Of a stretch of 55,897 nt of DNA, positions 11,334 to 38,521 are shown piece after piece. Source of the stretch: a virus. A program made the translations under genes and the position numbers. Location of the stretch: the IMG/VR virus record IMGVR_UViG_3300046520_000074. One strand, written 5' to 3'. Under the pieces are notes generated by a model, which worked only from the letters and a program-made list of their open reading frames with translations, was not told the DNA's origin and did no database searches. Each line of letters opens with the position of its first letter. Position 1 is the stretch's first letter.

Positions 11334-11383
11334 TCACCTTGACATGGTGGGGGTCGTTGGTTCGAGTCCAATCGCGCCTACCA
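11334..11383 (+). other. attP core: 3' half of tRNA-Val(GAC), from the anticodon arm through CCA
   Basis: tcacc-ttGACat-ggtgg anticodon arm, gggtc variable loop, gttgg-ttcgagt-ccaat T-arm, cgcgcct-a-cca acceptor end. There is no matching 5' acceptor or D-arm upstream. It is adjacent to int. Confidence 0.75.
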
Positions 11384-16061: not shown

Positions 16062-16107
16062 GACTTCGTCCTTGCCGCTATAGCGGCTGACTTTGAAGGG
16101 GGAGGGG

Positions 16108-17148: not shown

Positions 17149-17155
17149 CGCTGGG

Positions 17156-19099: not shown

Positions 19100-19139
19100 A
19101 GGGGGTCCTCGCCAGCTGGCGTGATTCGAGTTTGTGGGG

Positions 19140-20300
19140 TTACTTCTTCGGGTAGGTCTTGGTCAGCGCGCCGTTGACGGCATGGCCTCGCTTGAGCACG
19201 ACGCGAGCCAGGGCGGCCCGGTCTTTCTCGCTGTGGCTGGCCTGACTGAGCAGACCGAAGTAGCTGTTTGCGGTTTCGCGCAGATCCTCGGCAGGCGCCG
19301 CGGCTGTTCGCTTCAGCGCCTGAGCCAGTGACCGCTTCCGTGTCGTGCGCCGCCAGGGCTTGATGACGTGGCCGACGAAGTCGACGCCCCGATCCACCGG
19401 CTGAAGAATCGTCTTCTTCGGGTTCAGCTTGGCGCCCAGGCTGGGCAGGAATGCTTCCACTGCTGCCAGCCAGGCGTTGAGCTGTTGCGGCGACTCATGC
19501 AGGAACACGAAGTCATCGACGTATCGGATGTAGTGCTTGGCGCCCAGTCGGTGCTTGGCGAACTGGTCCAGGGCGTTCAGGTACACGTTGGCGAAGAACT
19601 GCGAGGACAGGTTGCCGATGGGCAGCCCCAGGCGGGCAGGCTGCGCAGTGAGGCGCTTGTGTTGCGGCACCCGATTGAACAGATGGGCCGGGCTGCGCAC
19701 CTCGTAGTCCTCGCGAGGGTCGTGCATCAGGATCTGTTCGGCGAGGGCCAGCCACCAGGGTTCGGTGATCTTGGCGGCCAACTGCTGGCGCAGCACCTCT
19801 TTGTCGATGGCGACGAAGAAGTTCGCCAGGTCGCACTTGAGGTAGAAGATCGGCTTCGACCAGTTCTCGCTGGCGCTGCGGATCTTCGATTCAAGGCGCT
19901 GGGCGGCGTACAACGTGCCTCGCCCAGGGATGCATGCGCAACTGTCCGCTATGAAGCTGGCGTAGAAGCGCGGTGCCACATGGTTGTACAGCAGGTGGTG
20001 GACGACGCGGTTCCGAAAGGCTGCTGCCCAGACTTCCCGGGCTTTCGGTCGGGTGACCACGAAGCAGATGGAGCGGCCTGGCCGGTAAGTGCCGGCGGTC
20101 AGGTCGTTGTGCAGCTCGATCAGGTTCCGCTCCAGGTCCATTTCGAAAGCCAGCGCGCTGTCGCTGTTGCGCTTGGAGCGTCGGCAGTCGTAATAGGCCT
20201 GGACCAGATCGCTGAATGGGTAGGGACCAACGTTCGAATCTGCGGACGGGGCGGACGCGGAGCTCGTTGTTCTTGTCGTTGTTGTTCTGATTGCCATCAT
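19140..20300 (-). CDS. DGR reverse transcriptase
   Basis: LPIGNLSSQFFANVYLNALDQF (DGR-type IGxxxSQ motif 4) and YIRYVDDFVF (YxDD). It lies immediately 3' of the TR. The only in-frame ATGs (20300 and 20297) lie inside the TR. Confidence 0.9.
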   Translation of the reverse strand: MMAIRTTTTRTTSSASAPSADSNVGPYPFSDLVQAYYDCRRSKRNSDSALAFEMDLERNLIELHNDLTAGTYRPGRSICFVVTRPKAREVWAAAFRNRVVHHLLYNHVAPRFYASFIADSCACIPGRGTLYAAQRLESKIRSASENWSKPIFYLKCDLANFFVAIDKEVLRQQLAAKITEPWWLALAEQILMHDPREDYEVRSPAHLFNRVPQHKRLTAQPARLGLPIGNLSSQFFANVYLNALDQFAKHRLGAKHYIRYVDDFVFLHESPQQLNAWLAAVEAFLPSLGAKLNPKKTILQPVDRGVDFVGHVIKPWRRTTRKRSLAQALKRTAAAPAEDLRETANSYFGLLSQASHSEKDRAALARVVLKRGHAVNGALTKTYPKK

Positions 20301-20340
20301 CGAAGTTCATGTTGAATGCGTTGTTGGCGGAGCGCTGCGA
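20237..20340 (-). repeat. DGR template repeat (TR)
   Basis: Sense strand TCGCAGCGCTCCGCC-AACAACGCATTCAACATGAACTTCGATGATGGCAATCAGAACAACAACGACAAGAACAAC-GAGCTCCGCGTCCGCCCCGTCCGCAGATT. It has 10 Asn codons. It is homologous to three VRs, differing almost only at its adenines. Confidence 0.9.
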
Positions 20341-20511
20341 CCTATCGTGCTATCTACGTCACCAAGCCGAAGGCGGAGCCGATCAGCAAGGCAACTGCGC
20401 GAGACCTACACGGACGCTTTAGACCGGCGGTATCTCTTGTGCGCATGGCGGTGACCAGAAGGTCAGCGGCACGACCAGATTCAATTCGCACAGACCTGAA
20501 AGCCGTGGCTC
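20341..20511 (-). ncRNA. avd-TR spacer, presumed part of the DGR RNA
   Basis: 171-nt non-coding interval between the avd stop and the TR 5' end. It is positionally equivalent to the BPP-1 Sp region. Confidence 0.5.
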
Positions 20512-20868
20512 TCAGATGGCGGGCGCGGTTGGGGTGGAACGTTTCCAGGCGTTTGCCTGTTTGCCAATTGAGGTGGTGATCTCGATAGCCTTGGCGTGCT
20601 GCGGCACGCTGATGAAACGGCTTTCCTTGAAAAGCCTCATCAGGAACTCGATCACCTGGACCTTCTCGACCAGCGAGGTCAGGTGTGGATGCTTGTCCCG
20701 GGTCGAGTTGGCCCGGGCAATCAACATCAGCACGTCGATGCACTCGTCGATCACCCGCTTGCCGAGCGACTGCTTCAGGTCGCGGGGGATGTTTCGAGTC
20801 AGGTTGGTAGCCATGAGCAACAAGCCCATCGACACCTTGTAGATGCTCAGTTCTGTGTGCATTCCCAT
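20512..20868 (-). CDS. avd: Accessory variability determinant (Avd), four-helix-bundle protein
   Basis: 118 aa, basic and helical. It resembles the 23S-rRNA-IVS / four-helix-bundle family. It sits between the target and the TR as in BPP-1. Confidence 0.8.
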   Translation of the reverse strand: MGMHTELSIYKVSMGLLLMATNLTRNIPRDLKQSLGKRVIDECIDVLMLIARANSTRDKHPHLTSLVEKVQVIEFLMRLFKESRFISVPQHAKAIEITTSIGKQANAWKRSTPTAPAI

Positions 20869-20925
20869 TGCAGTGGATCTCCTTGAAGAGCAACCGTCCG
20901 CAAGCGGCCGGATTAAATAAGCAAA

Positions 20926-21546
20926 TTAATCAATCAATTGACTGCGGACGGGGCGGACGCGGAGCTCGTTGCTCTTGACGTCGCTGACCTGATAGCCATC
21001 ACCGAAGCCCATGATGAATGCGGTGTCGGCGGAGCGCTGCGAACTCGACCAGTAGGCGCGATCCTGGAACGCCTCAGGGCCATCTTCCTGGAAGGCTTCG
21101 ATGCTGGTCTGGGTGGGCGACTCCTCGGTGTACAGCAGGCCGACCGGCTCGCTGTTGGGGTTGTCGCCGCTGCGCCCGTACTGCCAGTTCTCTTCGGTGG
21201 TTGGCTTGAAGTGGCGATACTGCAGCTCCTGCACGTCGCGGGCCGGGATCGCCCAGTCAGTGAAACCGCCGATGTCCAGGGCCAGGACTTTCTGCGCCAG
21301 TTCGCTGCCAGAGGCTGCCATGGCCTCGGTATTGGCCCGGCTGTCGGTGAAGCTTTCGGCCCCCTCGATCTTCTCGCCGTACTTGCCCCATGCACCGACC
21401 AGCTCATGTTCGGCGCCGGCGGTGATATTCAGGTAGCGCTTGCCGGTGTCCGGGTCGCGGGTGATGCCGGAGAAGAAGCCGCCACCGAACGGCTGGCCGA
21501 TTTCCGGGATGGTCACTGCTGGTGCTGCTTGAGCTGCTGCGGACAT
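20926..21546 (-). CDS. DGR target protein 1 (DUF1566 / C-type-lectin-fold-like)
   Basis: Start at MSAAAQ with an RBS aaagaggaaa. GQPFGGGFFSG...DW.IPA..EL...YWSSSQRSA...ELRVRPVR. VR1 occupies the C-terminus. Confidence 0.85.
   Translation of the reverse strand: MSAAAQAAPAVTIPEIGQPFGGGFFSGITRDPDTGKRYLNITAGAEHELVGAWGKYGEKIEGAESFTDSRANTEAMAASGSELAQKVLALDIGGFTDWAIPARDVQELQYRHFKPTTEENWQYGRSGDNPNSEPVGLLYTEESPTQTSIEAFQEDGPEAFQDRAYWSSSQRSADTAFIMGFGDGYQVSDVKSNELRVRPVRSQLID
20942..21042 (-). repeat. DGR variable repeat VR1
   Basis: 101 bp alignable to TR 20240-20340. 13 differences by hand count, all at TR adenines. Peptide SQRSADTAFIMGFGDGYQVSDVKSNELRVRPVR. Confidence 0.9.
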
Positions 21547-21572
21547 GGTCTTTCCTCTTTTCGAAGGCAACA

Positions 21573-21596
21573 AAAAAGGCGCTGCTGCGCCCCGGT
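21573..21596 (-). terminator. Hairpin plus T-run after target 2
   Basis: Minus strand ggcgc-agca-gcgcc followed by ttttttg. Confidence 0.55.
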
Positions 21597-21624
21597 GCCG
21601 GATCAAGAACGGATGAATGAAGGA

Positions 21625-22230
21625 TTAAATAAAGAATCTGCGGACGGGGCGGACGCGGAGCTCGCCGTCCTTGACGCCGTAGTCCTGAGGGCCAACATCG
21701 AAGTGCACGCTGAATGCGCCGTAGGCGGAGCGCTGCGAAGATGACCAGTACCAGGTGTCTTGGGCGAACACCTCAGGACAGTTCAGCCAGCCCTGGTACA
21801 GCTCGGCAGCGGCGGGCAGGTAGAAGTCGTTGTGGCCGTCTACCGCATACTCGGCGCAGGCATCGGACGCCGGATAATCGTTTTCGTCGAAGCACATCAG
21901 TTCGGTGTTGAGCTTGCCGTCCGTTTTGCTGGTGCCCGGCAGATCAGTGTTACGTGGACCCCATTCAAAGCTGCCAGCGTCCTTTGCAGCGAAGATCAGG
22001 TAGTGCGCCGGGACATCGCCACGAGCGGCAACCAGGCCGCCGTTGATGCCGCCCTGGCTCGGCCAGTACTCGCCCAGGGCAGGCACTGCACCTGGTGCTG
22101 GCGGCGCAACATTCGCCGCCTGGGGCAGGGCACCGGCAAACAAGGCGGCGACCGCGATCTCGGCCAGCCTGGTGCGCGCCACTTTGAATTGAGCACCGTT
22201 GTAGTTCAGCTTCACCATTTCAGCTTTCAT
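21625..22230 (-). CDS. DGR target protein 2 (DUF1566 / C-type-lectin-fold-like)
   Basis: GEYWPSQGGINGGLV...DFYLPAAAEL...WYWSSSQRSA...ELRVRPVRR. VR2 occupies the C-terminus. Confidence 0.85.
   Translation of the reverse strand: MKAEMVKLNYNGAQFKVARTRLAEIAVAALFAGALPQAANVAPPAPGAVPALGEYWPSQGGINGGLVAARGDVPAHYLIFAAKDAGSFEWGPRNTDLPGTSKTDGKLNTELMCFDENDYPASDACAEYAVDGHNDFYLPAAAELYQGWLNCPEVFAQDTWYWSSSQRSAYGAFSVHFDVGPQDYGVKDGELRVRPVRRFFI
21635..21738 (-). repeat. DGR variable repeat VR2
   Basis: 104 bp alignable to the TR. 17 differences by hand count, all at TR adenines. Peptide SQRSAYGAFSVHFDVGPQDYGVKDGELRVRPVR. Confidence 0.9.
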
Positions 22231-22289
22231 GGATATTCCTCAGGATGGCGCCGCCCTCCGTGGGCCGGATGCGCAGCGTGGGGTAGGGG

Positions 22290-22601
22290 TTATTCGTCGT
22301 GGCAGATGCGAAGGGCTTCGCGCTGATATGCCAGGGTCAATTTTTCCGACACGTTTTCGGGTATCACGTATTCGTGTCGCGGAGCAGAAAGGAACTGAGC
22401 AGATCCAGTCGGGCCAAGGCCGTGCAGATGGTGAATCATCAGCGTCATGGCCTCGCCCTGTTCCTCAATACCGTTCCAGGCCATCAGGTCGGCCAGGGCC
22501 TGGCGGGTGCCAGCCAGCGTGTGCAGGCGTAACTCCTCTTCGCCGCGGCTCTTTCGCTTCGCCGCGGTCTTTGCTGACCGGTCTTTCTGAGCTGCAGCCA
22601 T
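22290..22601 (-). CDS. Hypothetical protein
   Basis: 103-aa ORF in the leftward operon. Confidence 0.55.
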   Translation of the reverse strand: MAAAQKDRSAKTAAKRKSRGEEELRLHTLAGTRQALADLMAWNGIEEQGEAMTLMIHHLHGLGPTGSAQFLSAPRHEYVIPENVSEKLTLAYQREALRICHDE

Positions 22602-22670
22602 GGCAGGTCTCCGTTATTCCACTGGCCGGCAGTGCCAGCCAGGTCTGTCGTTTGCGTTGTTGGGTGCGGG

Positions 22671-23264
22671 CTATGCGGCGCATGAAGTACAGCCGCGCCG
22701 CGCTTTCGGGTAATCAATGCCGTGTTTGTCGAGAATTCGCTCGAAAGTCTTGTTGGCGATCCCGATTCGGCCGCAGGCCTGCCGCCTGGTAATTCCAAGC
22801 TCAAGGAAGGCGCGGATCCGCTCGGCGAACTTCGCGTCGCGCTCATCCAAATGCTTGTTTCGGTCTTCACCGCCAGAGCGCAACCGAGCCGGCCGCTTGA
22901 ATGTCAGGTTGTGGTCCTGGGCGATTCCGTACAGCGTGCGGCGGCTGATGCCAAGGGCGTCGACGATCTCGGCCTGTGTGTGCGTCGGCGCCATCTCGCG
23001 AATCTTTTCGATCTGCTTCATCCGCGCCTGGTGGCGAATGTCCTGGGCGGACAGTGGTGGAGGTGGTGCCGGAGGGCGTCGGCGAACAAACGGCTTTGGT
23101 GCCGGCGGCATCTGGTTGCTGTAACTGATCGGCTTTGGCTTGTAGCCGATCGGCTCGGCCTCTTCGATCTTTCCGCCGGCGGCCAGGTATTGCTCGGCCT
23201 GCGCTGCCAGCTTTTCGCGTTCAGGTCGAAGGGCTTCGACCATGCTCAAGTGGTTGCTGATCAT
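22671..23264 (-). CDS. HTH-domain protein (two putative helix-turn-helix segments, Pro-rich linker)
   Basis: TQAEIVDALGISRRTLYGI and RRQACGRIGIANKTFERIL. Confidence 0.6.
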   Translation of the reverse strand: MISNHLSMVEALRPEREKLAAQAEQYLAAGGKIEEAEPIGYKPKPISYSNQMPPAPKPFVRRRPPAPPPPLSAQDIRHQARMKQIEKIREMAPTHTQAEIVDALGISRRTLYGIAQDHNLTFKRPARLRSGGEDRNKHLDERDAKFAERIRAFLELGITRRQACGRIGIANKTFERILDKHGIDYPKARRGCTSCAA

Positions 23265-24028
23265 GCTGCTTTACTCCGAAGTTTCGCCTCGTAGCCGTCC
23301 ACCAGCAGCTTGAACTGCCAGAGGTCTTCTTCGAGCTTTTCGATGTAGTCGTCGTCGCGCTTGAATTCCTGAAGCCAGAGCTGGCGCCCGACAGGCTTGA
23401 GGAGAGGGCAGTACATCCCGATGTGCCACCACTTGCGGCCGGTGATCCACATGCAGCCCTGTACCTGGTCGATGACGTCGCTGGCATCGTTGTCGATGTG
23501 GAAGGCGCGGAGCTTGTCGGGAGCAAGGAAGCATTTGTACTCCGACCCGCCGTCCTCGCCGATGAACCCGTCCGCGCTGGCGCCAAACACGCCGTCATCC
23601 GTTTTAACTAGCCCGACCTGCATAACGATCAGACCCGTCTGGATTTCGTGCTCCATGCGGGCTTCTGGCTCCAGCTCATGCCCCCGGCGCATCTGCCACG
23701 TTTCGAACCCGCCATCCAGCGGCGCGCCGCCGATCCGCTCGACTGCCAGCTCAAAGGCGTAGCTCAAGGCAGCATTGGATGGCTCGCCGACCTGTTCGCC
23801 GTCCAGAGCTCGCTGAACAACTTCGGCCTTTGGCGCCGCCTTGTAGCCAGCAAGGTCGCGAGCTCGCGATTCGCTGTGACCGGCCAGGATGGCTTCCACA
23901 TAGGTGCGCTGCTGCGTGGTCAGCCCATTCACCTTGGAGCGGGCGGTGCTGAACATACTGGCAGTGATAACGCCTGCGCGGCCTTGCAGCCACTCAGGAG
24001 AACCTTGCGTGCAGTTGACGACGATCAT
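23261..24028 (-). CDS. YqaJ-type recombination exonuclease
   Basis: GSPEWLQGRAGVITASMF N-terminal motif. It is paired with an annealase. Confidence 0.85.
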   Translation of the reverse strand: MIVVNCTQGSPEWLQGRAGVITASMFSTARSKVNGLTTQQRTYVEAILAGHSESRARDLAGYKAAPKAEVVQRALDGEQVGEPSNAALSYAFELAVERIGGAPLDGGFETWQMRRGHELEPEARMEHEIQTGLIVMQVGLVKTDDGVFGASADGFIGEDGGSEYKCFLAPDKLRAFHIDNDASDVIDQVQGCMWITGRKWWHIGMYCPLLKPVGRQLWLQEFKRDDDYIEKLEEDLWQFKLLVDGYEAKLRSKAA

Positions 24029-24783
24029 TTGGGCGCCTCCAGCTTGGCTTTGTGGACGGTTACGGCGGTCTTCACGGTGGAGTAGCCGTTGGTGTCACCC
24101 GATGCTTGCAGGACTTTCAGGCTTGCCTGCCAGACATCCCTGAGCTCATCTGGAGTTTTGGTCTGTCCGACACGCTCAAGGATGTCCGCCACTACCTGAG
24201 CGCGCATGTCATCCGTATCCGAGCCATCGGCCGACTGTCCGTCATCGTCGCGCGTCTCGCCCGTGGTGATGTTGAGTAGCGCGCACATAACGTAGCGCTT
24301 TCCGTAAGTAGTGGAGGAGCCGACGGCCTGCACATCGTTGCGCCCCTTGCCGATATCGACCGGCAGGCTCATGGTCGTTTGCTCGCGATGACCGCCTCGG
24401 TGCATCAGAATCCCGGTGACCTTAATCACCTTGTCCTCTGTTTCAACCTTGAACGTGATGGCGAAGCCATGCTGCTGCATGATCGGCTTCAGGGTGTGGG
24501 TGATGTGGTCCAGCGTTGCGTAGGAGTTGCCCGTGTGCAGGTTTACGGCGCCCTCGAACACAGTGGGGATGTTGCACTGCATTTCGGCCATGGCCGCGTT
24601 GAATTCCTGCTCGGCGGTCTTGGCCTGCATCCGTTCATGCATGGCGAGCAGGCGCTCCATCTTTTCGATATCGCAGGTCGGGTCGGCGGCGGCTCGGCTG
24701 ATGACCGCCATGATGCTGTTGTCCGTCGAGATCGGCACGACGGCTTGCCGGCGCTGATCCGGCATGATGATGTCTTGTGCCAT
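24025..24783 (-). CDS. ERF-family single-strand annealing protein
   Basis: YATLDHI...KP and QAVGSSTTYGKRYVMCALLNI resemble P22 Erf (QVTGATSSYARKYCLNGLFGI). Confidence 0.75.
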   Translation of the reverse strand: MAQDIIMPDQRRQAVVPISTDNSIMAVISRAAADPTCDIEKMERLLAMHERMQAKTAEQEFNAAMAEMQCNIPTVFEGAVNLHTGNSYATLDHITHTLKPIMQQHGFAITFKVETEDKVIKVTGILMHRGGHREQTTMSLPVDIGKGRNDVQAVGSSTTYGKRYVMCALLNITTGETRDDDGQSADGSDTDDMRAQVVADILERVGQTKTPDELRDVWQASLKVLQASGDTNGYSTVKTAVTVHKAKLEAPK

Positions 24784-24795
24784 GGTGGGCCTCTC

Positions 24796-25926
24796 TCAGT
24801 ACTGGATAGCGATTGCTGGGATCTTGCGCAGTGCGATCAAGGTGATTGCCTGCTTCGCGCATTCCTCGGTCATGCCGCCGGCGACGAAAGCGTCCAGGGC
24901 GGCACGGTTGATCCTGGTCTTGTGCGCCTTGTCAGCTTCGCGGGCTTCCTGCTGCCGGAGGATCTCGGCAGCGGCAGCATCAGCCCGGCGGCGCTCGTCG
25001 ATGCGCGCTTGCTCAGCGGCTTGCTCGGCCCGCTGTTCTGCCGCGATGCGGCTGGCTTCTGCCTGCTCGGCTGCCCGCTGGGCTTGCTGGGCCTGTAACT
25101 GAAGCTGAAGGCGCTGGTTCTCTGCGGCTGCTTCAGCATCGCGGGCCGCTTGCTCTGCGGCCAACTGATTGGCTGCGGCCTGGTCCCGTAGCTCCTGCTC
25201 CCGGCGTGCCGCTGCATCGCGCTCAGCCTGGGCCTGTTGTTCGGCTTGGAGTCGGGCCTGTTCAGCCGCTGCCCGGGCAATCTCTGCATCCCGGTCGCGC
25301 TGGGCCTGCGCTTCTGCCTCGGTGCGCAGCCGGACCAACTCGGCCTGTTCGGTTTCGTACCGCGCTCGCTCGGTGTGCAGGGCGCGCAGCTTGATCAGCG
25401 TCTGGTCTTTCACCTGGGCGGCCTCGGCCAAGAACTCTTCCCACGAATCGTCCAGTGCCAGCAGCTCCAGGTCGCCAATGATTTGTGCAACGTGCGCAGC
25501 GGTCGGCGACTCTTCGAATCGAGCCAGAGCCTTGATGGCATCTATCTCGTCGCTGTGCTTGGCGACCCTGGCATCTTCGGCAGCCTGCCAATCGTCTAGG
25601 GGCTTCCTAACCTCCTTCTGCCATGCTTCGAGGGTGTCCCATACGCGCTTGCGCTCAGCGTCGATCAGCTTGGGGATTTCCTTTTGCTTGGCGGAAATCT
25701 CTTTCCCCACCGCTTCAAGTGCAGTTTTCGATTTTGCAATCGAGTGCGCCATCGATGCGTAAGCCTCGCGGCCTTTGCGAGTTTTGAGGTCGGGCAGCAC
25801 CTTCTTGAACTCGTCGACCTTTGCTCGCACCTGGTCAAGCCAAGGGTCAAGCCCGTTCGGTTTGCTGTAGACGGCCAGGGCGGTTTCAGCGGGCGGCACC
25901 ACGGCCAGTTCGGTATTTGCGGACAC
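24796..25926 (-). CDS. Coiled-coil protein with an Ala/Glu/Gln-rich low-complexity centre
   Basis: GTG start with an aagga RBS. 376 aa. Confidence 0.65.
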   Translation of the reverse strand: MSANTELAVVPPAETALAVYSKPNGLDPWLDQVRAKVDEFKKVLPDLKTRKGREAYASMAHSIAKSKTALEAVGKEISAKQKEIPKLIDAERKRVWDTLEAWQKEVRKPLDDWQAAEDARVAKHSDEIDAIKALARFEESPTAAHVAQIIGDLELLALDDSWEEFLAEAAQVKDQTLIKLRALHTERARYETEQAELVRLRTEAEAQAQRDRDAEIARAAAEQARLQAEQQAQAERDAAARREQELRDQAAANQLAAEQAARDAEAAAENQRLQLQLQAQQAQRAAEQAEASRIAAEQRAEQAAEQARIDERRRADAAAAEILRQQEAREADKAHKTRINRAALDAFVAGGMTEECAKQAITLIALRKIPAIAIQY

Positions 25927-25970
25927 GAGCGAATCCTTGCCGCGACGTGCGCAGCGTTTGAAGGTGTGAG

Positions 25971-26087
25971 TTAGGAGGTGATGCGATCAGCGAGTGCGCT
26001 CATCAGCATCAGGAAGGTCCAAAAGGTGATGGCCGAGAACGACCCTCGCCAGATCAGGATGCGCCTAGCGCGCTGATGGCCGGTCAC
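25971..26087 (-). CDS. Possible small hydrophobic peptide (38 aa)
   Basis: GTGA overlap with the upstream small ORF. AITFWTFLMLMSAL segment. It is below the ORF-track size cut-off. Confidence 0.3.
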   Translation of the reverse strand: MTGHQRARRILIWRGSFSAITFWTFLMLMSALADRITS

Positions 26088-26203
26088 CGAAGCATCTGGG
26101 AGAGTTGAGGCGGCAGGCATACGCCACGGTCTTCTTGCCGGGCAATGTGCTCGAGCATGAGCACAAGAAGGGCGGCGACAAGCATCCAGTAGAGGAACTT
26201 CAT
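26084..26203 (-). CDS. Possible small membrane peptide (39 aa)
   Basis: ATGA overlap with the 26200 stop. MKFLYWMLVAALLVLMLEH. Confidence 0.4.
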   Translation of the reverse strand: MKFLYWMLVAALLVLMLEHIARQEDRGVCLPPQLSQMLR

Positions 26204-26409
26204 GGCGCCACCTTCACCGCATAGGCGACAGTCCATTCACCACAAAGGCAGGCCCGGCCACTCCAGGCATGTACGTTCGGGATGCCAGCGTCATGAGCGA
26301 GCGAAAGGGCGCCCAGCCACTTGGTGTGGGTGAAGGCCAGGATCATGCGGTCGGCGGGCAGCTCTTCGATCTGCTCGTCGATCAGTGATTTCACGATAGG
26401 GGTGGTCAT
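26200..26409 (-). CDS. Hypothetical protein
   Basis: 69-aa ORF, translationally coupled on both sides. Confidence 0.55.
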   Translation of the reverse strand: MTTPIVKSLIDEQIEELPADRMILAFTHTKWLGALSLAHDAGIPNVHAWSGRACLCGEWTVAYAVKVAP

Positions 26410-26621
26410 GCCGAAGCCCTCTTGAGGTAGTCGTTGCGCTCGCAGAACTTCAAGTCCAGCTTGTCGCGGTAGGCGTTGGCCTCGTGCCGGTTGAGCAGGT
26501 CGATGAACTCGGCCATCTCGATCATGCCCATGACGAAGGTCCGGTCTGGCCCAGGGCAGTGGGAGCGGGAGACCTTGGCAATCTCCAGGTCGATGGCAGC
26601 CTTGGCTTTATCGGCGCTCAT
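26406..26621 (-). CDS. Hypothetical protein
   Basis: 71-aa ORF, coupled to its neighbours. Confidence 0.55.
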   Translation of the reverse strand: MSADKAKAAIDLEIAKVSRSHCPGPDRTFVMGMIEMAEFIDLLNRHEANAYRDKLDLKFCERNDYLKRASA

Positions 26622-27040
26622 AATTCGTTGTCCTCTGCCTGGGCGATCAGTGCGTCATCAGCCAAGGGCTCAAGTAGGGCCTGTGCGATTTCGCCGAGCT
26701 TGCCGAAGGGGTGGTCGCTGGGGCCGAGCAGTTCGGCGATGGCGTTCTTGTCGGCCCGACCATCTGCCGACAGCAGCAGCCAGCCCAGCGCCGGGGTGTG
26801 GACCTTGCAGTCCGCCAGCCTGTTGTTCACGTGCTCATCCACGGCCAGGGCCAGGGCTGCCACGGTGACGACCCGGGCTTGTTGCCAGCGGCGCCGGACC
26901 TTCACATCCACGCCACGCAGCAGGTCCTCAGTCGCGCTGTACAACCACTCAGCCCGAGCAACCTCACGTGGGCTCTCGCTCACCATCGGAGGCAACTGCT
27001 CGTCGTGCATGGCCTGACAAATCTTCAGTGCTGCGTTCAT
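26618..27040 (-). CDS. Hypothetical protein
   Basis: Start at MNAALKICQ with a ggaggc RBS. The longer ORF to 27142 would overlap the small Zn-protein gene. Confidence 0.55.
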   Translation of the reverse strand: MNAALKICQAMHDEQLPPMVSESPREVARAEWLYSATEDLLRGVDVKVRRRWQQARVVTVAALALAVDEHVNNRLADCKVHTPALGWLLLSADGRADKNAIAELLGPSDHPFGKLGEIAQALLEPLADDALIAQAEDNEL

Positions 27041-27059
27041 GGTTGCCTCCAGATCGGCG

Positions 27060-27209
27060 TTATTGGGCTTTCTGTTTCTCTTGCCTTGCCTTGATGGCGC
27101 AGTCGGCATGCTGGGTTCGCCAGCCGCCCGCATGGCGCTCAAAGTGGCCTTGTCCGACCTCGACGCGCTGGTTGCAGCGGTAGCAGGTGCCGGGGTGCTT
27201 GTTGCGCAT
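27060..27209 (-). CDS. Small Cys/His protein (49 aa)
   Basis: MRNKHPGTCYRCNQRVEVGQGHFERH...HADC. It is below the ORF-track cut-off. Confidence 0.5.
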   Translation of the reverse strand: MRNKHPGTCYRCNQRVEVGQGHFERHAGGWRTQHADCAIKARQEKQKAQ

Positions 27210-27214
27210 GGCGG

Positions 27215-27712
27215 CTACTCGGAAGGCGGGGCGGGGATTTCGTGCCAGTGCGTCGGCGTGATGTCACAACGGTCGCCGTCGATGTAGCGCCACGGCCGAT
27301 GTTCGTTACCGCAGGTCATGGCGAAGAAAGGACCGTCGTTGGTCTTCTTACCCAGGCGATACACCAGAACCTTCTGCCGAATTGGTGGCAGCCTGTCGCT
27401 GCACTTGATCCAATCACTCGTGGCGACCTCTAGTGTTTGGGATTGGGCGGTGGCTTTGGCGATTGCAGCCTCTGCATCAGCCAGAGCCGCGTGGTACTTG
27501 CTGAGGTTTGCGGCGCCAAGCCGGGCTAGGCCAACCAGATTGCTAAGGCTTTCCAGAAGCTCAGGCGCGGCGACGATCAGCTTGGCGTTGGCTATCCCTT
27601 CGTCGTTGCTGATTCTCACGTCCGCCACTTTGCGGTCGCCCCCAGCGTCCCTAACCACGCTTCCATTCCTGATCCACGGCTTCGGCGTGTGCTTGCTCAT
27701 GACTATCTCCAT
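27215..27712 (-). CDS. Ead/Ea22-like N-terminus plus DUF551-like C-terminus
   Basis: HTPKPW...AKLIVAAPELLESL; C-terminal WIKCSDRLPP...THWHEIPAPP. Confidence 0.65.
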   Translation of the reverse strand: MEIVMSKHTPKPWIRNGSVVRDAGGDRKVADVRISNDEGIANAKLIVAAPELLESLSNLVGLARLGAANLSKYHAALADAEAAIAKATAQSQTLEVATSDWIKCSDRLPPIRQKVLVYRLGKKTNDGPFFAMTCGNEHRPWRYIDGDRCDITPTHWHEIPAPPSE

Positions 27713-27821
27713 CTGGTTGATCCAACAAATTCCGGCTGCACACGATCCTTCCGCTGTTTGCCGTTGGGCGCGGTGTCATGTGCATGCGGGATTGGTCGGT
27801 GACCTGTGGGGACGAGAAGTG

Positions 27822-27851
27822 AAAAGGCCCAACTCGACAGAAAGGCCTTTT
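27822..27851. terminator. Symmetric hairpin, possible bidirectional terminator inside the early operon
   Basis: aaaaggcc-14 nt-ggcctttt. Confidence 0.4.
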
Positions 27852-27865
27852 CGAATGATGCAGCT

Positions 27866-28036
27866 TCAGGTCGAGTATTTGGATCGGGGCAGCGTGCGCC
27901 AGAACGAACGCCGACCCTCAGTACATCGCCAGCGCTCACGATGTAAGCGCAGTGGACCGGTTGGCAGGCCGTCATCAGGTGGCGGTTCTGGCCGCGCATG
28001 GCTGAGCGCTGCGCCGATCAGGAATATCTGGAGCAT
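27866..28036 (-). CDS. Possible 56-aa ORF
   Basis: ggagatagatATG RBS. MLQIFLIGAALS start. It lies in a 435-bp gap that otherwise has no gene call. Confidence 0.3.
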   Translation of the reverse strand: MLQIFLIGAALSHARPEPPPDDGLPTGPLRLHRERWRCTEGRRSFWRTLPRSKYST

Positions 28037-28147
28037 ATCTATCTCCAATTTGGAGCAGGTGGCCGGCACTGCCCGGCATGTATCAGGCCTTGCCGCTCGT
28101 ACCTGAGCAGCACCGCGATTCACCTGCGATGAGAAGCAATAAATGGA

Positions 28148-28750
28148 TCAATGAATAGACAATCTGCGGACGGGGCGGACGCGGAGCTCGTAGAACTTGA
28201 AGCTGGTGCCCTGAGTGCCAGCAACGAAGTACATGAGGAAGGCGTCGTAGGCGGAGCGCTGCGAACTGCTCCAGTGCCACTCCTTCTCAAACAGCTCCGG
28301 CACGTTCGCCATGCACAGGGCCAGCTCGTCGATGGCTGGCAGGTAGAGATCCTTGTGGCCCTCGACAGTGAGGCCGTCGCACCACTGGGCGGCCGGGTGG
28401 TTCTGGTCGGAGCCTTCAACCAGGTGAAGCGTGTTCGCCAGGCCATCCCGGCGGCTTGCCGCTTCCGGCTCATCCACCTCATAGCCGCCAAAGGCCAGCT
28501 TCTTGCCCTTGACCGATTCGTGAGTGGGGACGATCACCCAGTAATCAGGGGTGCCGTTCTCTCCGCGCATCAGGCCGGCATTCACACCGCCTTGGCCGGC
28601 CCAATACTCGCCGATGGCCGGGGCCGAGATTGCGAACGTGGCAGGCTGAGCGCTCATCGACAAGGTCGCCAGTTTCAGCACCATCGATTCGTCAGGACTG
28701 CTGATCATTAGGTCGCCACGGGTGTAGGTGGTCAGTTGAGTTGCTTGCAT
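28148..28750 (-). CDS. DGR target protein 3 (remote; DUF1566 / C-type-lectin-fold-like)
   Basis: Start at MQATQL with an aaggaa RBS. GEYWAGQGGVNAGLM...DLYLPAIDEL...WHWSSSQRSA...ELRVRPVRR. VR3 occupies the C-terminus. Confidence 0.85.
   Translation of the reverse strand: MQATQLTTYTRGDLMISSPDESMVLKLATLSMSAQPATFAISAPAIGEYWAGQGGVNAGLMRGENGTPDYWVIVPTHESVKGKKLAFGGYEVDEPEAASRRDGLANTLHLVEGSDQNHPAAQWCDGLTVEGHKDLYLPAIDELALCMANVPELFEKEWHWSSSQRSAYDAFLMYFVAGTQGTSFKFYELRVRPVRRLSIH
28161..28264 (-). repeat. DGR variable repeat VR3
   Basis: 104 bp alignable to the TR. 17 differences at TR adenines plus one at a TR guanine (codon GAC in TR versus TTC in VR3). Peptide SQRSAYDAFLMYFVAGTQGTSFKFYELRVRPVR. Confidence 0.88.
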
Positions 28751-28976
28751 GGGGTTATTCCTTGTCGGGGATGTTGGGCCGCATTGGGGTGTGATCTGTG
28801 CGGAAGGCAAGTCCCGCTTTGCGCCTCGGAGTGCGCCCCCTCAAGCCACGCTCCGGTGATTTCTCACTGCCTGGTCGTGGTCTCGCGTTCTTCCCGAGGT
28901 TGCGAACCCTCGCTTTTCGGCTAGTTGCCAGCGCCTTAATGTCTGCTGGCAGTTCAGATCACACCCCGATGCGCTC

Positions 28977-29174
28977 TCATAGAGAGGATCGGGCAGCAGC
29001 CTTGCAGTCGGCCGCCGTCATTCGATGGCCGTCTTCGCACTCAACTACGCGCACGCCACTGGTGTAGCCACGCTCAGCGTTGAGCCTGTTTGCCTCGCGG
29101 ATGCAGGCATCCAGGTCTTCATCGGCAAACACCTGCAACTCTCCGTGCAGGGTGATGTGAAGGACCTTGTTCAT
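28977..29174 (-). CDS. Hypothetical protein
   Basis: 65-aa ORF in the leftward operon. Confidence 0.5.
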   Translation of the reverse strand: MNKVLHITLHGELQVFADEDLDACIREANRLNAERGYTSGVRVVECEDGHRMTAADCKAAARSSL

Positions 29175-29189
29175 CGTCTTGCCCTCGCT

Positions 29190-29432
29190 TCACGCAACCT
29201 TTTCGAGAACTTCCCGGCTGAAGGCCTGAATGTTCATGTGTGCCTTGACCGTCATTGCCTGGCGCTGCTTGATGTGGCTGCGCATCGCAAGGTCTGCTAT
29301 GTCGGCTGGGTCAGCTTCGAGTGCTGCAATCGCCTCATCTACTCCGCCGAACCACTTCTCCAGCAGCCTGGCGCAGGAAGCGGCGGCTTCGCTAACCACC
29401 TCATCACTCACTTCAAAAACTGAAGTACTCAT
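29190..29432 (-). CDS. Hypothetical protein
   Basis: 80-aa ORF. Confidence 0.5.
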   Translation of the reverse strand: MSTSVFEVSDEVVSEAAASCARLLEKWFGGVDEAIAALEADPADIADLAMRSHIKQRQAMTVKAHMNIQAFSREVLEKVA

Positions 29433-29640
29433 TACGTGCCTCCCGGTTGCTTTCCCAATGCACCCGGTCGCCCAGGTGCATCAGTGAAAAATCCGTATTG
29501 CTCGCGCCTCCTACCGGGTCATTCGCCAGTTCGGTCAACACCTCGTCCGCCGTCGCAGTTCTGCGCGTTGGTAGCCTTTCGGGGCTATCGGATCGCCGGT
29601 CGCCAGCAGTGGCAGCGCGATTTTTTTCACCTGACTTCAT
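29413..29640 (-). CDS. First gene downstream of the PL-like promoter; Arg-rich N-terminus (N-like antiterminator candidate by position only)
   Basis: GDRRSDSPERLPTRRTA basic stretch. No sequence similarity to lambda N is claimed. Confidence 0.45.
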   Translation of the reverse strand: MKSGEKNRAATAGDRRSDSPERLPTRRTATADEVLTELANDPVGGASNTDFSLMHLGDRVHWESNREARNEYFSF

Positions 29641-29763
29641 CTCGCCCCACAGGTGTGGCCGGGGCTGACCTCCCAGCGTTAGCCGGGTAATCGTTTATGG
29701 CGCGGATTGTTAAAGAGCGGCGCGGCTTTCGCTGCTGGGCCGGTGTTGCTTGGCTTGGAACAA

Positions 29764-29808
29764 ACATTACTAGCGATAATATTAATCGTCAAGACCGCAG
29801 GTAATAAA
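29764..29808 (-). promoter_or_regulatory. PL-like promoter with operator
   Basis: Minus strand TTGACG-17 nt-TAATGT. The motif aagaccgcaggtaataa (29791-29807) overlaps the -35 and recurs in the cI/cro intergenic region. Confidence 0.55.
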
Positions 29809-29868
29809 AATTATCACGGACAATAAAAAGCCCACTCGGTGGCGGGCTCGGGGATGGGGTGGGGCGGC

Positions 29869-30120
29869 TCAGGCTTCGCAGTATTCGCGCCAGCCGATCC
29901 TGACGGTTCCGTCCTCCAGTCGTTCTATTCGAACGCCGCTGGTTTCTTCAATTTCCTGAAGGACCTGGTGCCAGGCCTCCGAGCTTTCATCCTCACGTCT
30001 GGATACGACGACGGCCTGCGTCTTTTGAACGGCAGGCGAGGCGATGAGGCGCTGGATTCGCCGCCCCACAAGTTCGTAGGAATTCTTTGGTTGCAGTTTG
30101 ACGGCTGCGATCTGCTGCAT
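29869..30120 (-). CDS. Small protein under a LexA box (function unknown)
   Basis: 83 aa with a strong RBS (aaggag). An SOS box lies 20 nt upstream. Confidence 0.65.
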   Translation of the reverse strand: MQQIAAVKLQPKNSYELVGRRIQRLIASPAVQKTQAVVVSRREDESSEAWHQVLQEIEETSGVRIERLEDGTVRIGWREYCEA

Positions 30121-30139
30121 ATTGCGCTCCTTGTTTTAG

Positions 30140-30155
30140 CTGTATGTATATACAG
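30140..30155. promoter_or_regulatory. LexA (SOS) box
   Basis: ctgtatgtatatacag = CTGT-N8-ACAG. Confidence 0.7.
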
Positions 30156-30219
30156 TATTGATCCTGACGTATTTTGGCAAGAGCGTGGGTGGCGATTAGC
30201 TTTCATTCTTGATTTGGCA

Positions 30220-30244
30220 CAAAAAAGCCCGCACTTGGCGGGCT
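30220..30244 (-). terminator. Rho-independent terminator after the membrane-protein gene
   Basis: Minus strand agcccgc-caagt-gcgggct followed by tttttt. Confidence 0.75.
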
Positions 30245-30261
30245 TCGTCATCGCTGGATGT

Positions 30262-30816
30262 TTAGGTGACTGGCTCGATCAGAAATAGCTCTCCATGCAG
30301 ATCGCAGTGGGATATCAGACTTTCGCGTGCACTAGCTGCCTCGGATTCAGAGGGGAACGGGCCAGCAATTAAGAGTTTTGGGGTGCCTTTAGTCAGCGGT
30401 AGTCCGATACGCTTGATGGCCTTGGTTGCTTCTGCATGCTGCCAGGGCTCGCACTCTATCTGCACAGCCCAACCGTGCGCCAAAGGAGCTTGTCCGGAGC
30501 GAGATGGAGAAACGTCGGCGCCGCAATGTCTGCATTTGATTGCTGCGTTTTTAATGGGCTCTGCACAAAGCGGGCAGGGCCGCGTGTCGAATTGCGCTGC
30601 TGTTTGCGCTGCCGAGGTCTTGCCTCCAAGCAGAACCATTAGCAAGCCTGCAAGCGCTATCATCCCGCCAACAATAGTGTGTATCTGGCGGTCAGCCATG
30701 AGCCCCAGGTTGTTCACTCTGCCGCCGGCGCCTGTAGCGACAGATACGTCCATGCTCAACGCGAACACCAGCCAGCAGATGCCGATGATCAGTGCAAGCG
30801 TTCCAAATCCTTTCAT
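30262..30816 (-). CDS. Membrane protein with a zinc ribbon and a SPOR-like C-terminal domain
   Basis: Start at MKGFGTL. Two hydrophobic segments. CPLCAEPI..KCRHCG. C-terminal WAVQIE...LLIAGPFPSESEAASA resembles a SPOR fold. It is adjacent to cI. Confidence 0.7.
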   Translation of the reverse strand: MKGFGTLALIIGICWLVFALSMDVSVATGAGGRVNNLGLMADRQIHTIVGGMIALAGLLMVLLGGKTSAAQTAAQFDTRPCPLCAEPIKNAAIKCRHCGADVSPSRSGQAPLAHGWAVQIECEPWQHAEATKAIKRIGLPLTKGTPKLLIAGPFPSESEAASARESLISHCDLHGELFLIEPVT

Positions 30817-30921
30817 TGGATAACCCCCGAAATTGAGCACGCACTTTACCATCCGTGGCGTACGGCCACCATTGGCATGCTGGGAAGGGCATGTGCTGGA
30901 TCGGATTTGGGATTGATCAAG

Positions 30922-31662
30922 TTAGTAATGAAACTTCTGTGTTGCCTGCACCACGACGCCCACGATCCGGCAGTTCTCATCAAATACTTCCGTGGGGTAC
31001 CCGGGATTCAGCGGCTTCAGGAACAGCTTTCCGCCATCACTGACTAGCTTTTTGAAGGTTGCCTCATTGCTGTCGGGCAGCTTGGCTACGACCAGCTTGC
31101 CCGGCGCAGCTTCGACCTCTGTATCGACGAGGATCAGTGAGCCTTGGGCGATGCTGGTGCCAACCTGCGAGGTCATTGAGTCGCCCTTGACTTCAAGCCA
31201 GAACGCTGGGCCCTTCGAGTCGTATTCGGAAAACTCGTATCGATCTGAAAATCCAGCCGGGTAGGGCTCGACAGCTTCAGACCAAGCGCCGGCGGCAACC
31301 CAACTGATCACTGGGTAGCGGAAAGACTGCTTTGGTTGTCTCACTTCCCCCACGTTTGAATTCGAATCCTCAGAAAGGCGATCGATTTCTTTTGCCAGGC
31401 GCGCACTGAAGTCCGACACCGGGACTTGAAGGTAGCGAGCGAAGACAGCCGCCGCCTCGATGTTCAACGCGTTTCTGCCAGTCAAATAGTGGCTGGCTGC
31501 ACTTTGACTATTCGCCTTGAGTCCTTCAATGGCGATCTTCTCCTGGCTGATTCCCAGTTCCTTTTTCTTCGCCTTGTAAATCGCGTTAAGCGCAGCGCAC
31601 TCGGCCTTCTCAACCTCGGAAAGCTCGCGTTTTTTGGTCAGGTTTTTTTCAGTCGTTTTCAT
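30922..31662 (-). CDS. cI: CI-type repressor (HTH plus S24 autopeptidase)
   Basis: Close match in pattern to lambda cI: YPVISWVAAGAW (Ala-Gly cleavage site), FWLEVKGDSM, ATFKKL...LKPLNPGYP. Confidence 0.92.
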   Translation of the reverse strand: MKTTEKNLTKKRELSEVEKAECAALNAIYKAKKKELGISQEKIAIEGLKANSQSAASHYLTGRNALNIEAAAVFARYLQVPVSDFSARLAKEIDRLSEDSNSNVGEVRQPKQSFRYPVISWVAAGAWSEAVEPYPAGFSDRYEFSEYDSKGPAFWLEVKGDSMTSQVGTSIAQGSLILVDTEVEAAPGKLVVAKLPDSNEATFKKLVSDGGKLFLKPLNPGYPTEVFDENCRIVGVVVQATQKFHY

Positions 31663-31767
31663 CAGGCAACTGTATTACTTCAGGTATTAACATTCCAAGA
31701 CCGCCAATATTGACTTAATAAAGACCGCAAGTAATACTTACGCATGCATCACGCAGGAGAACCCCGT
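31663..31767. promoter_or_regulatory. OR region: divergent PRM/PR-like promoters with repeated operator motifs
   Basis: aagaccgc-N-a.taat motifs at 31697 and 31721. Inverted GTATTACTT (31672) and AAGTAATAC (31729). PR candidate TTGACT (31710-31715)-16 nt-TAATAC (31732-31737). Confidence 0.6.
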
Positions 31768-31968
31768 ATGCAACGCACACCACTGAAAGAGTTCGTGACA
31801 AAGGTCGGGCAGATCAAGGCTGCCGCCGCGCTTGGGCTTACCCAGGGCGGAATTAGCAAGGCGCTTAGGGCTGATCGCGAGGTTTATGTGATTGATCTCG
31901 GCGACGGCTCCTACAAGGCCGAAGAGATCAAGCCCTTCCCAGGCCAGGCCCAAAGGCTCGCCAGCTAA
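31768..31968 (+). CDS. cro: Cro-like repressor (HTH)
   Basis: MQRTPLKEFVTKVGQIKAAAALGLTQGGISKAL. Divergent from cI. Confidence 0.8.
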   Translation: MQRTPLKEFVTKVGQIKAAAALGLTQGGISKALRADREVYVIDLGDGSYKAEEIKPFPGQAQRLAS

Positions 31969-32022
31969 CTGAACATCCTTTCCACCGAATCATTGAAGCC
32001 AGATTAGAAGAGAGCGGCCCCC

Positions 32023-32625
32023 ATGGAAACGTCGAACTTGCGACACGAAACACGCGATGCGGTCTTGGTCGCTATTGCGCGAGACATGATCGCTCGTACG
32101 AGCATGAGCCAGGACGGCTTTGCAGAGCAGTTGAATCACCAGCTCTTTGATCGTGCGCCGGGGCGCTGCAAAGAGAAGGGGTTCCCTGATCTGCACGAAA
32201 TGACCAAAACCGCAGACATGCAGGCCTATGGCCGTGCCTACAAGGCATGGAGTAAGCGTGTAGAGCGCTGGCTGGACGACAGCGGCGAGCGCATCGAGAT
32301 CCCTTCGTGGATTGAAGAGTCATGGGTTTCCGCCCTTGATCAGCCCTGGCGCGATCGCGCATTGATTGAGCTGTCGAGCAGATACGGCCTTCTCGCCGTG
32401 AAGCAGGTAGGCGCGGGTATTGACGACGCGCTGCAGGTATTCGCCGGCATTTCGACAAGCTTTGGTCACGTCGCCGGACTGGGCGGGAAGGTTTTCGCTG
32501 ATGGCGTGTTTGACCATAAAGACAAGGGCTACGCCGAGTCCTTCGAATCTTTCTGCCGCTCACTAGCCGCCCATGCGGTTTCGATGGCCGATCAGGCTGC
32601 ATCGGTCAGATCAAAGATTCACTAA
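32023..32625 (+). CDS. Hypothetical protein in the cII position
   Basis: 200-aa ORF directly after cro. No recognisable domain. Confidence 0.55.
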   Translation: METSNLRHETRDAVLVAIARDMIARTSMSQDGFAEQLNHQLFDRAPGRCKEKGFPDLHEMTKTADMQAYGRAYKAWSKRVERWLDDSGERIEIPSWIEESWVSALDQPWRDRALIELSSRYGLLAVKQVGAGIDDALQVFAGISTSFGHVAGLGGKVFADGVFDHKDKGYAESFESFCRSLAAHAVSMADQAASVRSKIH

Positions 32626-38068: not shown

Positions 38069-38144
38069 TGCGTGGTAGAGCAGTGGTCAGCTCGTCGGGC
38101 TCATATCCCGAAGGTCGATGGTTCGAATCCATCCCTCGCAACCA
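38069..38144 (+). tRNA. tRNA with anticodon CAT (elongator Met or Ile2)
   Basis: Hand-folded cloverleaf: D-arm gagc/gctc, anticodon arm tcggg-ctCATat-cccga, T-arm gatgg-ttcgaat-ccatc, CCA end. There is one T:T mismatch in the acceptor stem. Confidence 0.7.
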
Positions 38145-38149
38145 GATTT

Positions 38150-38225
38150 GCCGTTATAGCTCCAGCGGTAGAGCAATCGCTTTGTAAGCGAATGGCCCGG
38201 GGTTCGAATCCTCGTGACGGCACCA
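38150..38225 (+). tRNA. tRNA-Thr (anticodon TGT)
   Basis: Acceptor gccgtta/tgacggc, D-arm gctc/gagc, anticodon loop ttTGTaa, T-arm cgggg-ttcgaat-cctcg, CCA end. Confidence 0.7.
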
Positions 38226-38287: not shown

Positions 38288-38521
38288 GCAACACCTGTAG
38301 CCAGGACAGCCTTCGGGAATCCCTGGACGCGGTATAGCCGGAAGTCACGCGTCACGAAAGAACACCGGCAGCCCGCGCACCCTGTTCACACCTGACTTCC
38401 AGGGTGGCGCGAGACTTGAGCGGCGAGATCGATGCACTGGGGCGTCGACGTTGCAAAGGCCTTCGGCAGACAGCGGGAAAGACTGCGCACCTATTCAGGG
38501 CCTCAGCTACTGCTGAAGCTG

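Follow-up and report, generated by a model that had tools for sequence, protein, structure and literature searches.

A probable remote third target of a single diversity-generating retroelement in a temperate Pseudomonas phage

The IMG/VR virus record IMGVR_UViG_3300046520_000074 (55,897 nt; hereafter the window) is the genome of a temperate Pseudomonas phage, and all of its database neighbours are Pseudomonas phages. It contains one diversity-generating retroelement (DGR), which comprises a reverse transcriptase (RT), a template repeat (TR), the RT-15 RNA, Avd and two adjacent DUF1566 target genes, each carrying a variable repeat (VR). A third DUF1566 target lies remote from this cassette. 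Sequence comparisons indicate that its variable repeat, VR3, is very probably functional as a target of this one DGR, the third and the sole non-adjacent one. The repeat and its three targets are arranged as follows.

20237-20340, minus strand: TR, consisting of a 101-nt core (20240-20340) and then ATT; 31 adenines, mostly in AAC codons
20926-21546, minus strand: target 1, a DUF1566 paralogue of 206 aa, with VR1 at 20942-21042; Lcl_C match with E=6e-7, sub-gathering
21625-22230, minus strand: target 2, a DUF1566 paralogue of 201 aa, with VR2 at 21638-21738
28148-28750, minus strand: target 3, a DUF1566 paralogue of 200 aa (ATG at 28750, TGA at 28148-28150), with VR3 at 28164-28264

VR3 differs from the TR at adenines

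A repeat search of the window recovered four in-register copies of ~150 nt, at 20208-20355, 20910-21057, 21606-21753 and 28132-28279. On the minus strand, the 101-nt core starts with TCGCAGCGCTCCGCC and ends with CCGTCCGCAG. VR1 and VR2 differ from the TR at 13 and 17 positions, respectively, and every one of these is a TR adenine (13/13 and 17/17). VR3 has 18 mismatches, 17 at TR adenines and one G>T. With 31 adenines among the 101 positions, a concentration of mismatches on adenines as strong as this one (17 or more out of 18) has a hypergeometric probability of 5e-10. Both VR3 and the TR carry ATT past the core, which extends VR3 to 28161-28264. The TR and all VRs close with one and the same 20-nt GC-rich sequence, which occurs four times in the window compared to 0.04 expected occurrences. 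The VRs stop 13-16 nt short of the target stop codons and are thus C-terminal, as is usual for DGR targets.

The initial annotation of this DNA had described a third paralogue carrying a C-terminal VR3, with 17 adenine differences and one at a guanine (codon GAC to TTC), and had proposed that one TR serves three VRs, one of them beyond the recombination genes. Base-level alignment reproduced the count exactly and the VR matched the TR. Repeat and motif searches of the window found no second TR and no second RT, and the genes for ERF and YqaJ lie within the 7.8 kb that separates the TR from VR3.

VR3 tracks the TR in related genomes

The same layout of TR, VR1, VR2 and remote VR3 was found in six other genomes: Cruim01, the IMG/VR prophages L005, L006, L009 and L011, and a prophage of Pseudomonas sp. 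RGM2987 (L019). In these six, VR3 is at the syntenic position, 6.8-9.1 kb from the TR, and differs from its own TR at adenines only, except at position 0, the repeat edge, in L009 and L011. Non-adenine variants specific to the TR of one genome were copied into the VR3 of that genome (AATCAG and GAGCTT in Cruim01, CCGTG in L005 and GAGTT in L019). VR3 thus evolves in concert with its own TR, which requires continuing transfer from the TR to VR3.

Variation at adenines was extensive. Across ten VR3 orthologues, 26 of the 31 TR-adenine columns were variable, and the non-adenine columns followed the TR of each genome. The invariance among relatives that the initial annotation would have taken as the mark of a fossil target was therefore not observed. 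Genome pairs with target-3 bodies 93-97% identical showed 39-61% identity at adenine sites and 97-100% at non-adenine VR sites. Target-3 protein clusters built at 90% identity from metagenomes (12 and 15 sequences) were near-invariant outside the VR, with up to seven residues per position inside it. Family-wide, in 25 TR-VR pairs from nine genomes, 351/775 adenine sites (45%) and 3/1750 internal non-adenine sites (0.17%) differed from the TR. These rates fit those published for purified bRT-Avd, which are ~50% at adenines and 0-0.5% at other sites (PMC6182149).

Three duplicated genes could also resemble one another, and the TR, through ordinary paralogy, with the adenine bias a coincidence. 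The targets are indeed paralogues with 36% amino-acid identity and homologous 3' flanks. We nevertheless reject chance and paralogy, which we consider to have a negligible probability, on the basis of the adenine-bias P value, the recurrence of the pattern in seven genomes with genome-specific TR variants, and the tracking of the TR by VR3. In addition, the 101-nt block of VR3 is 82% identical to the TR (99% at non-adenine sites), and the rest of the paralogues is far more diverged.

In one further relative, L007 (IMGVR_UViG_2510065054_000001, ~10487-10588), VR3 has a 1-nt insertion in the variable stretch that causes a C-terminal frameshift. A P. brassicacearum protein (P0186) has the same frameshifted tail. 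The L007 insertion is either an indel made by the DGR that inactivates the target or a sequencing error.

A conserved AT-rich flank follows each VR

Directly past CCGTCCGCAG, a homologous AT-rich stretch of ~32-36 nt was present in every VR, in all three classes and all genomes. A candidate initiation of mutagenic homing (IMH)-like motif was delineated in each flank of the window.

20894-20941, minus strand: VR1 3' flank, with the AT-rich IMH-like motif at 20916-20934, then a GC hairpin at 20894-20911
21572-21637, minus strand: VR2 3' flank, with the AT-rich IMH-like motif at 21612-21630, then the hairpin GGCGC-AGCA-GCGCC at 21578-21591 and T6
28128-28163, minus strand: VR3 3' flank, with the AT-rich IMH-like motif at 28138-28156

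The VR1 flank reads TCAATTGATTGATTAATTTGCTTATTTAATCC, the VR2 flank begins ATTCTTTATTTAATCCTTCATTCATCCG and the VR3 flank reads ATTGTCTATTCATTGATCCATTTATTGCTTCTC. The TR instead continues with ATTCGAACGTTGGTCCC, which encodes the RT N-terminus and is unrelated to the VR flanks. Most of the AT-rich flank lies beyond the stop codons, and it can be aligned across paralogues that share 36% protein identity. The VR3 flank is conserved among orthologues whose gene bodies are 60-97% identical, and the sequence further downstream cannot be aligned between clades. Since cDNA derived from the TR cannot homogenise the flank, its conservation points to selection. The initial annotation had proposed looking for conserved cis-elements 3' of each VR, and the AT-rich flank, common to all three VR classes, is such an element.

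We suggest that the AT-rich flank is the target-recognition element (IMH). The GC-rich segment and, after it, a sequence by which VR and TR can be told apart, where the TR would carry the IMH* counterpart, parallel the GC-rich block and VR-specific sequence of BPP-1 (IMH vs IMH*; PMC5758913). An integration host factor (IHF)-type consensus was also sought by eye in the AT-rich flanks; only VR1 fitted and the candidate was dropped.

The flanks also differ in their hairpins. Nine genomes conserve the VR1 GC hairpin, L009 through a compensatory replacement of C-G by T-A, and the VR2 hairpin is terminator-like. A GC-rich inverted repeat boosts homing in BPP-1 and Legionella. Such a repeat is found in just 34% of DGRs and is not a defining feature (PMC5758913).

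Turnover of the VRs among sibling contigs

Two sibling sequences, L022 and L023, are JGI contigs from other samples and were compared to the window over 18500-32200. They differ from it by one background single-nucleotide polymorphism (SNP; 22766) in 13.7 kb, and the TR is identical. VR2 was present as three alleles in the three siblings, with 11 and 20 differences from the window and 16 between L022 and L023, all at adenines. VR1 had three adenine-site differences from the window, with the same allele in L022 and L023. These lie at window positions 20969-20973 and are the three most 3' adenines, within the final two AAC codons before the GC-rich end. The pattern would fit conversion that began at the 3' (IMH) end and covered just part of the repeat. 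The rewriting of VR1 and VR2 among siblings shows that the DGR is active in this lineage.

Some observations weigh against VR3 being a functional target. VR3, including the G>T change, was identical in all three siblings. The exact target-3 protein was found on four contigs as a single variant, compared to three variants of target 2. No GC-rich inverted repeat was found within 80 nt of VR3 (folding z=+0.48, no better than shuffles), and the IMH role of the AT-rich flank is read from its conservation. A degenerate 19-nt motif search was circular, because the pattern had been built from its three sites, and is not counted as evidence; the evidence for the flank is the cross-genome alignment.

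The sampling of siblings affects how this invariance is read. L022 was picked by exact target-3 protein identity and so its VR3 is identical by construction. L023 was picked via the target-2 cluster and, together with cluster counts, lessens this ascertainment bias in a sample of 3-4 contigs. An exact-sequence index placed the RT of the window on four contigs. An exact look-up of the window's target-2 protein returned no record, and a search for more siblings by the VR3-flank pattern in metagenome and viral scans returned nothing beyond the known contigs. The available siblings suggest two or more turnovers of VR2 within their timespan, a single, partial one of VR1 and none of VR3. Slower homing at VR3 than at VR1 and VR2 is weakly supported by this. 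The missing hairpin is a speculative candidate for the reason.

The VR3 of this phage could alternatively be a fossil, a former target to which homing has ceased, perhaps after the loss of a required cis-element, and which is drifting, with the G>T change as the first sign of decay. The invariance of VR3 in 3-4 siblings among which VR2 underwent two or more rewritings and VR1 one, the one non-adenine mismatch and the absence of a GC hairpin nearby would all fit such a history. Furthermore, true orphan VRs exist in relatives without RT, Avd and TR (Aurca01, Medea1 and the P. putida prophage L024). However, the VR3 flank of the window is nearly identical to those of L005, L006 and L010, whose VR3s differ from that of the window at about half of the adenine sites, and 69 of the 70 non-adenine positions still agree with the TR. 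All parts of the DGR are intact and the siblings demonstrate its activity, single non-adenine mismatches also occur in proximal VR1s, and 3-4 siblings separated by ~1 SNP per 14 kb represent a very brief period. We therefore consider a fossil VR3 improbable and favour a VR3 that is still served by the DGR.

The single non-adenine mismatch in VR3

The G>T mismatch in VR3 is located as follows.

28201, minus strand: TR G vs VR3 T, core index 63, changing codon GAC (TR) to TTC (VR3)

The change is present in three independently assembled contigs and is therefore not an assembly error. TTC is unique among the ten VR3 orthologues, the others having GTC, GGC or GCC at this codon. Lone non-adenine mismatches were also found in the proximal VR1 of L009 and of L019, and one or more non-A-to-N substitutions were recorded in 23% of the DGRs surveyed (PMC5758913). 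A single homing event with RT error at the expected rate would account for the G>T change, and a later point mutation from GTC (Val) to TTC (Phe) fits equally well. The initial annotation had offered drift or RT error as explanations, and both remain compatible with the data, the family-wide rate of 0.17% matching the published RT error. For the case of drift, it had also read the mismatch as a possible sign of less frequent homing at VR3. The mismatch itself is no evidence for this, given the similar changes in proximal VR1s and the family-wide rate; slower homing as such retains the weak support of the sibling comparison. We propose that the change would have arisen as a rare non-adenine error in the last homing event, or by mutation of GTC to TTC afterwards, and would persist because VR3 has not been rewritten since.

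Conversely, the TR rather than VR3 could have changed. An older TR with AAC would have allowed VR3 to be written as TTC, with the TR later becoming GAC, and VR3 would then be very old. At this codon, one target-3 cluster (P0034) includes S, R and Y, residues that adenine mutagenesis could generate from AAC but not from GAC, and the G carried by VR1 and VR2 here could stem from either template. The TR of the P0034 lineage was sought, and the sole long contig (L024) has no DGR nearby. On the other hand, GAC is shared by the nine TRs examined, even with their RTs down to ~90% identity, the other nine VR3 orthologues have GTC, GGC or GCC, and the VR3 adenine sites turned over far more recently than the TRs diverged. 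A changed TR is thus very improbable, and an RT error in, or a point mutation after, the last homing of VR3 is the preferred explanation.

Organisation of the cassette and its surroundings

The remaining components of the cassette lie on either side of the TR.

19140-20300, minus strand: RT open reading frame (ORF) of 386 aa; Pfam RVT_1 at 61.5 bits; motifs IGNLSSQ and YVDD
20338-20528, minus strand: RT-15 structured RNA, Rfam RF03018; cmscan score of 173.2 bits against a gathering score of 82, E=4.7e-42
20512-20868, minus strand: Avd, 118 aa; Pfam bAvd PF22296 at 47.6 bits, cut-off 40

Hallmarks of DGR-clade RTs are a motif 4 of the form I/LGxxxSQ and a catalytic YxDD. The translation of the RT contains LPIGNLSSQFFANVYLN as motif 4 and the catalytic YVDD, placing it in the DGR clade. 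By tblastn it is 90-91% identical to the RTs of Cruim01 and SC_8, and matches were also found to RTs in Bordetella phage records. NCBIfam returned just sub-threshold matches, to other RT classes. The first ATG of the RT, at 20300, is inside the TR, within GATGATGGC, and similarity to other RTs starts at about residue 21-27, directly past the TR. The ORF thus opens in the TR and its homology follows directly after it, leaving no non-coding spacer between the TR and the RT. Database annotations of this RT use starts that give 333, 336, 372 or 386 aa.

The RT-15 match is full-length and lies between avd and the TR. It overlaps the 3' end and stop region of avd and abuts the TR, ending on the first bases of the TR. 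An RT-15 feature is also annotated in Cruim01. In BPP-1, sequence upstream of the TR is required, and cDNA synthesis here may depend on RT-15 as the upstream portion of the DGR RNA. Avd scored 50.3 bits against NCBIfam DivGenRetAVD, under the cut-off of 80.

Upstream of target 2, the leftward genes continue to the repressor.

Between target 2 and YqaJ, minus strand: gene for a helix-turn-helix (HTH) protein
23261-24028, minus strand: YqaJ exonuclease
24025-24783, minus strand: ERF annealing protein
Between ERF and target 3, minus strand: several small ORFs and a DUF551 protein
Beyond target 3, minus strand: further small ORFs, then an S24 cI-type repressor at 30922-31662

Target 3 is therefore in the same leftward early operon as the cassette, set apart by the recombination module and near cI. 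Downstream of the RT, a C5 cytosine methyltransferase gene (17156-19099, minus strand) has clustered substitutions compared to L022, especially at 18149-18464, and below ~17700 the sequence of the sibling L023 is unrelated to the window. This patchwork is mosaic recombination directly beside the DGR. In the rightward part of the genome, two tRNA genes (38069-38141 and 38150-38222, plus strand) are followed by a Proteo-phage-1 RNA (38295-38373, plus strand; RF03044, 69 bits). The window begins and ends with an exact 127-nt direct repeat (1-127 and 55771-55897), the signature of a circular assembly, and is thus a complete genome of ~55,770 bp. The parts 17000-31000 and 31000-55897 were searched against phage records, and none spans 80% of either.

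The target proteins

Pfam Lcl_C/DUF1566 scores of the three ~200-aa targets were 23-30 bits, below the gathering threshold of 34.9, and homologues are named 'DUF1566 domain-containing protein' at NCBI. Target 3 matched Pfam Lcl_C with E=9e-5 and belongs to PHROG 4245. A profile of the target-3 family aligned with the C-terminal domain of Legionella Lcl (Lcl-CTD, 8Q4E) at E=4.5e-6 over residues 90-164, through the C-terminal xVRxVR strand. Lcl-CTD has a C-type-lectin-like fold (PMC11162425). The AlphaFold (AF2) model of target 3 has a predicted local distance difference test (pLDDT) score of 79.8, with values below 50 in the VR loop (residues 166-184). A search of this model against BFVD matched predicted DUF1566 phage proteins with E down to 9e-8, and Foldseek against the PDB returned nothing below E=1. 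The DUF1566/C-type-lectin assignment thus rests on sequence profiles and the BFVD matches. No recognisable signal peptide and no collagen repeats were found in the targets.

Proposed mechanism and comparison with known DGRs

Following the BPP-1 paradigm, we propose that a minus-strand early transcript carrying RT-15, the TR and the start of the RT gene would serve as the RNA intermediate. RT-Avd would reverse-transcribe the TR, with errors at about half of its adenines. The resulting diffusible cDNA would replace the homologous 101 nt wherever the GC-rich end (CGCGTCCGCCCCGTCCGCAG) and the VR-only AT-rich flank, the putative IMH, are present together, and the different sequence after the TR would keep the transfer one-way. 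Three DUF1566 (C-type-lectin-like) paralogues qualify, two beside avd and the third 7.8 kb upstream, beyond ERF and YqaJ. Distance would be irrelevant because the cDNA acts in trans. A lower homing efficiency at VR3 is likewise suggested by analogy with BPP-1.

The element resembles BPP-1 (mtd-avd-TR-brt) in its target-avd-TR-RT gene order and RT-Avd pair, in adenine-specific TR-VR differences concentrated in AAC codons, in the position of the VR at the C-terminus of a C-type-lectin-like domain, and in the GC-rich VR end followed by sequence that differs between VR and TR. It differs in having three targets rather than one, and these are 200-aa DUF1566 proteins encoded in an early recombination operon near cI, in contrast to the late-region tail-fibre protein of BPP-1. 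Other differences are the conserved RT-15 RNA upstream of the TR, the RT ORF that opens inside the TR without a non-coding spacer, and the lack of a GC inverted repeat at VR3. Compared to Legionella Lcl (PMC11162425), the target-3 profile alignment includes the xVRxVR strand, but the targets have no collagen repeats and their Pfam Lcl_C scores are sub-threshold.

Classic cases of multi-target or non-adjacent DGRs are those of Treponema denticola and Legionella. In the survey of Wu et al. (2018), ~15% of DGRs had more than one target and 45/372 had non-adjacent targets; the extra target of phage-associated DGRs was within 50 kb, in the same prophage, and category 'd' (CLec2/DUF1566) targets were often short DUF1566-only proteins (PMC5758913). 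The element described here fits all of these features. By that survey's definition, a non-adjacent target matches the TR with A-to-N differences only, apart from minor exceptions, and does not belong to another DGR; VR3 has 17 A-to-N differences and one exception, and a single TR and RT were found in the genome. Multi-target DGRs, non-adjacent prophage targets, DUF1566-only targets and isolated non-adenine differences are thus already described. A difference is that the three-target layout is syntenic in at least seven genomes here. All of the defining DGR features that can be tested in silico were found in this element, the sole feature missing being the GC inverted repeat past VR3, which is non-defining. 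The early-operon location of the targets rather than among tail genes, the syntenic three-target layout and the RT-less relatives with VR genes are mildly unusual. Pseudomonas is not mentioned in the main text of Wu et al. (PMC5758913). The Cruim01 genome paper makes no mention of a DGR and the Cruim01 RT is annotated as 'retron-type'. We found no paper describing this Pseudomonas phage DGR lineage.

Orphan targets in related phages

VR-like ends were also found in relatives that lack the rest of the DGR. Aurca01 (L003, PP179334) has three DUF1566 paralogues with VR-like ends at 6737-6837, 7425-7525 and 15962-16062, and Medea1 (L004, MW862109) has two, at 11265-11365 and 11953-12053. These ends look adenine-diversified compared to a Cruim01-type TR. 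No Avd, TR or RT was found anywhere in Aurca01 or Medea1, and neither was among the six Pseudomonas RT matches. Their VR genes are orphan or fossil targets. At VR1 the sequence departs as soon as the repeat ends (CCGTCCGACG), and the AT-rich flank has been lost. The two VRs of Medea1 differ from each other at a non-adenine site (GAGCTT vs GAGCTC). The P. putida prophage L024 (GCA_028682395.1, JANHLC010000009.1) carries a target-3 orthologue at the syntenic position, 10001-10603, and the 9 kb that remain before the end of the contig showed no target 1 or 2, Avd or RT. Its 90%-identity cluster (P0034) is nonetheless highly diversified in the VR. As a group, the orphan VR paralogues of Aurca01, Medea1 and L024 keep the GC end and the AT-rich flank, apart from the flank lost at VR1. 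We regard it as conceivable, although rather unlikely, that the orphan VRs are rewritten in trans by the DGR of a co-resident prophage or a co-infecting phage.

Other relatives vary in their complement of targets. SC_8_H2H8_2017 (L002, MT121966) has just the two adjacent targets, with no target-3 match in the record. RTs of this clade, 68-72% identical, were found in the P. aeruginosa phages Haboob, phPA-G and LPPA56, and vB_Pae_U7 and U9 were not among the RT matches. The target-3 protein matched two places each in Haboob, phPA-G, U7 and U9, and one in LPPA56. The RTs of Burkholderia and Shewanella phages are 67% identical.

Implications

The targets are encoded in a leftward early operon with ERF/YqaJ, DUF551 and methylase genes and have no evident signal peptide. 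On this basis it is conceivable, although we regard it as rather unlikely, that this DGR clade diversifies a non-structural, early-expressed binding protein, acting for instance in anti-defence, host takeover or superinfection exclusion, and not a receptor-binding tail protein. Multi-target DGRs and non-adjacent prophage targets have been documented since 2017-2018, and as a catalogue entry the present case is ordinary. It does, however, provide a natural test system, in which a single TR acts on three paralogues that have a conserved 3' flank in common, several relatives differ in target number (one, two or three) or keep orphan targets without the retroelement, and turnover among siblings is unequal (VR2 > VR1 > VR3). 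In culturable phages such as Cruim01, it could be tested what sets homing efficiency, be it the hairpin, distance or replication context, and what the early-operon DUF1566 proteins bind.

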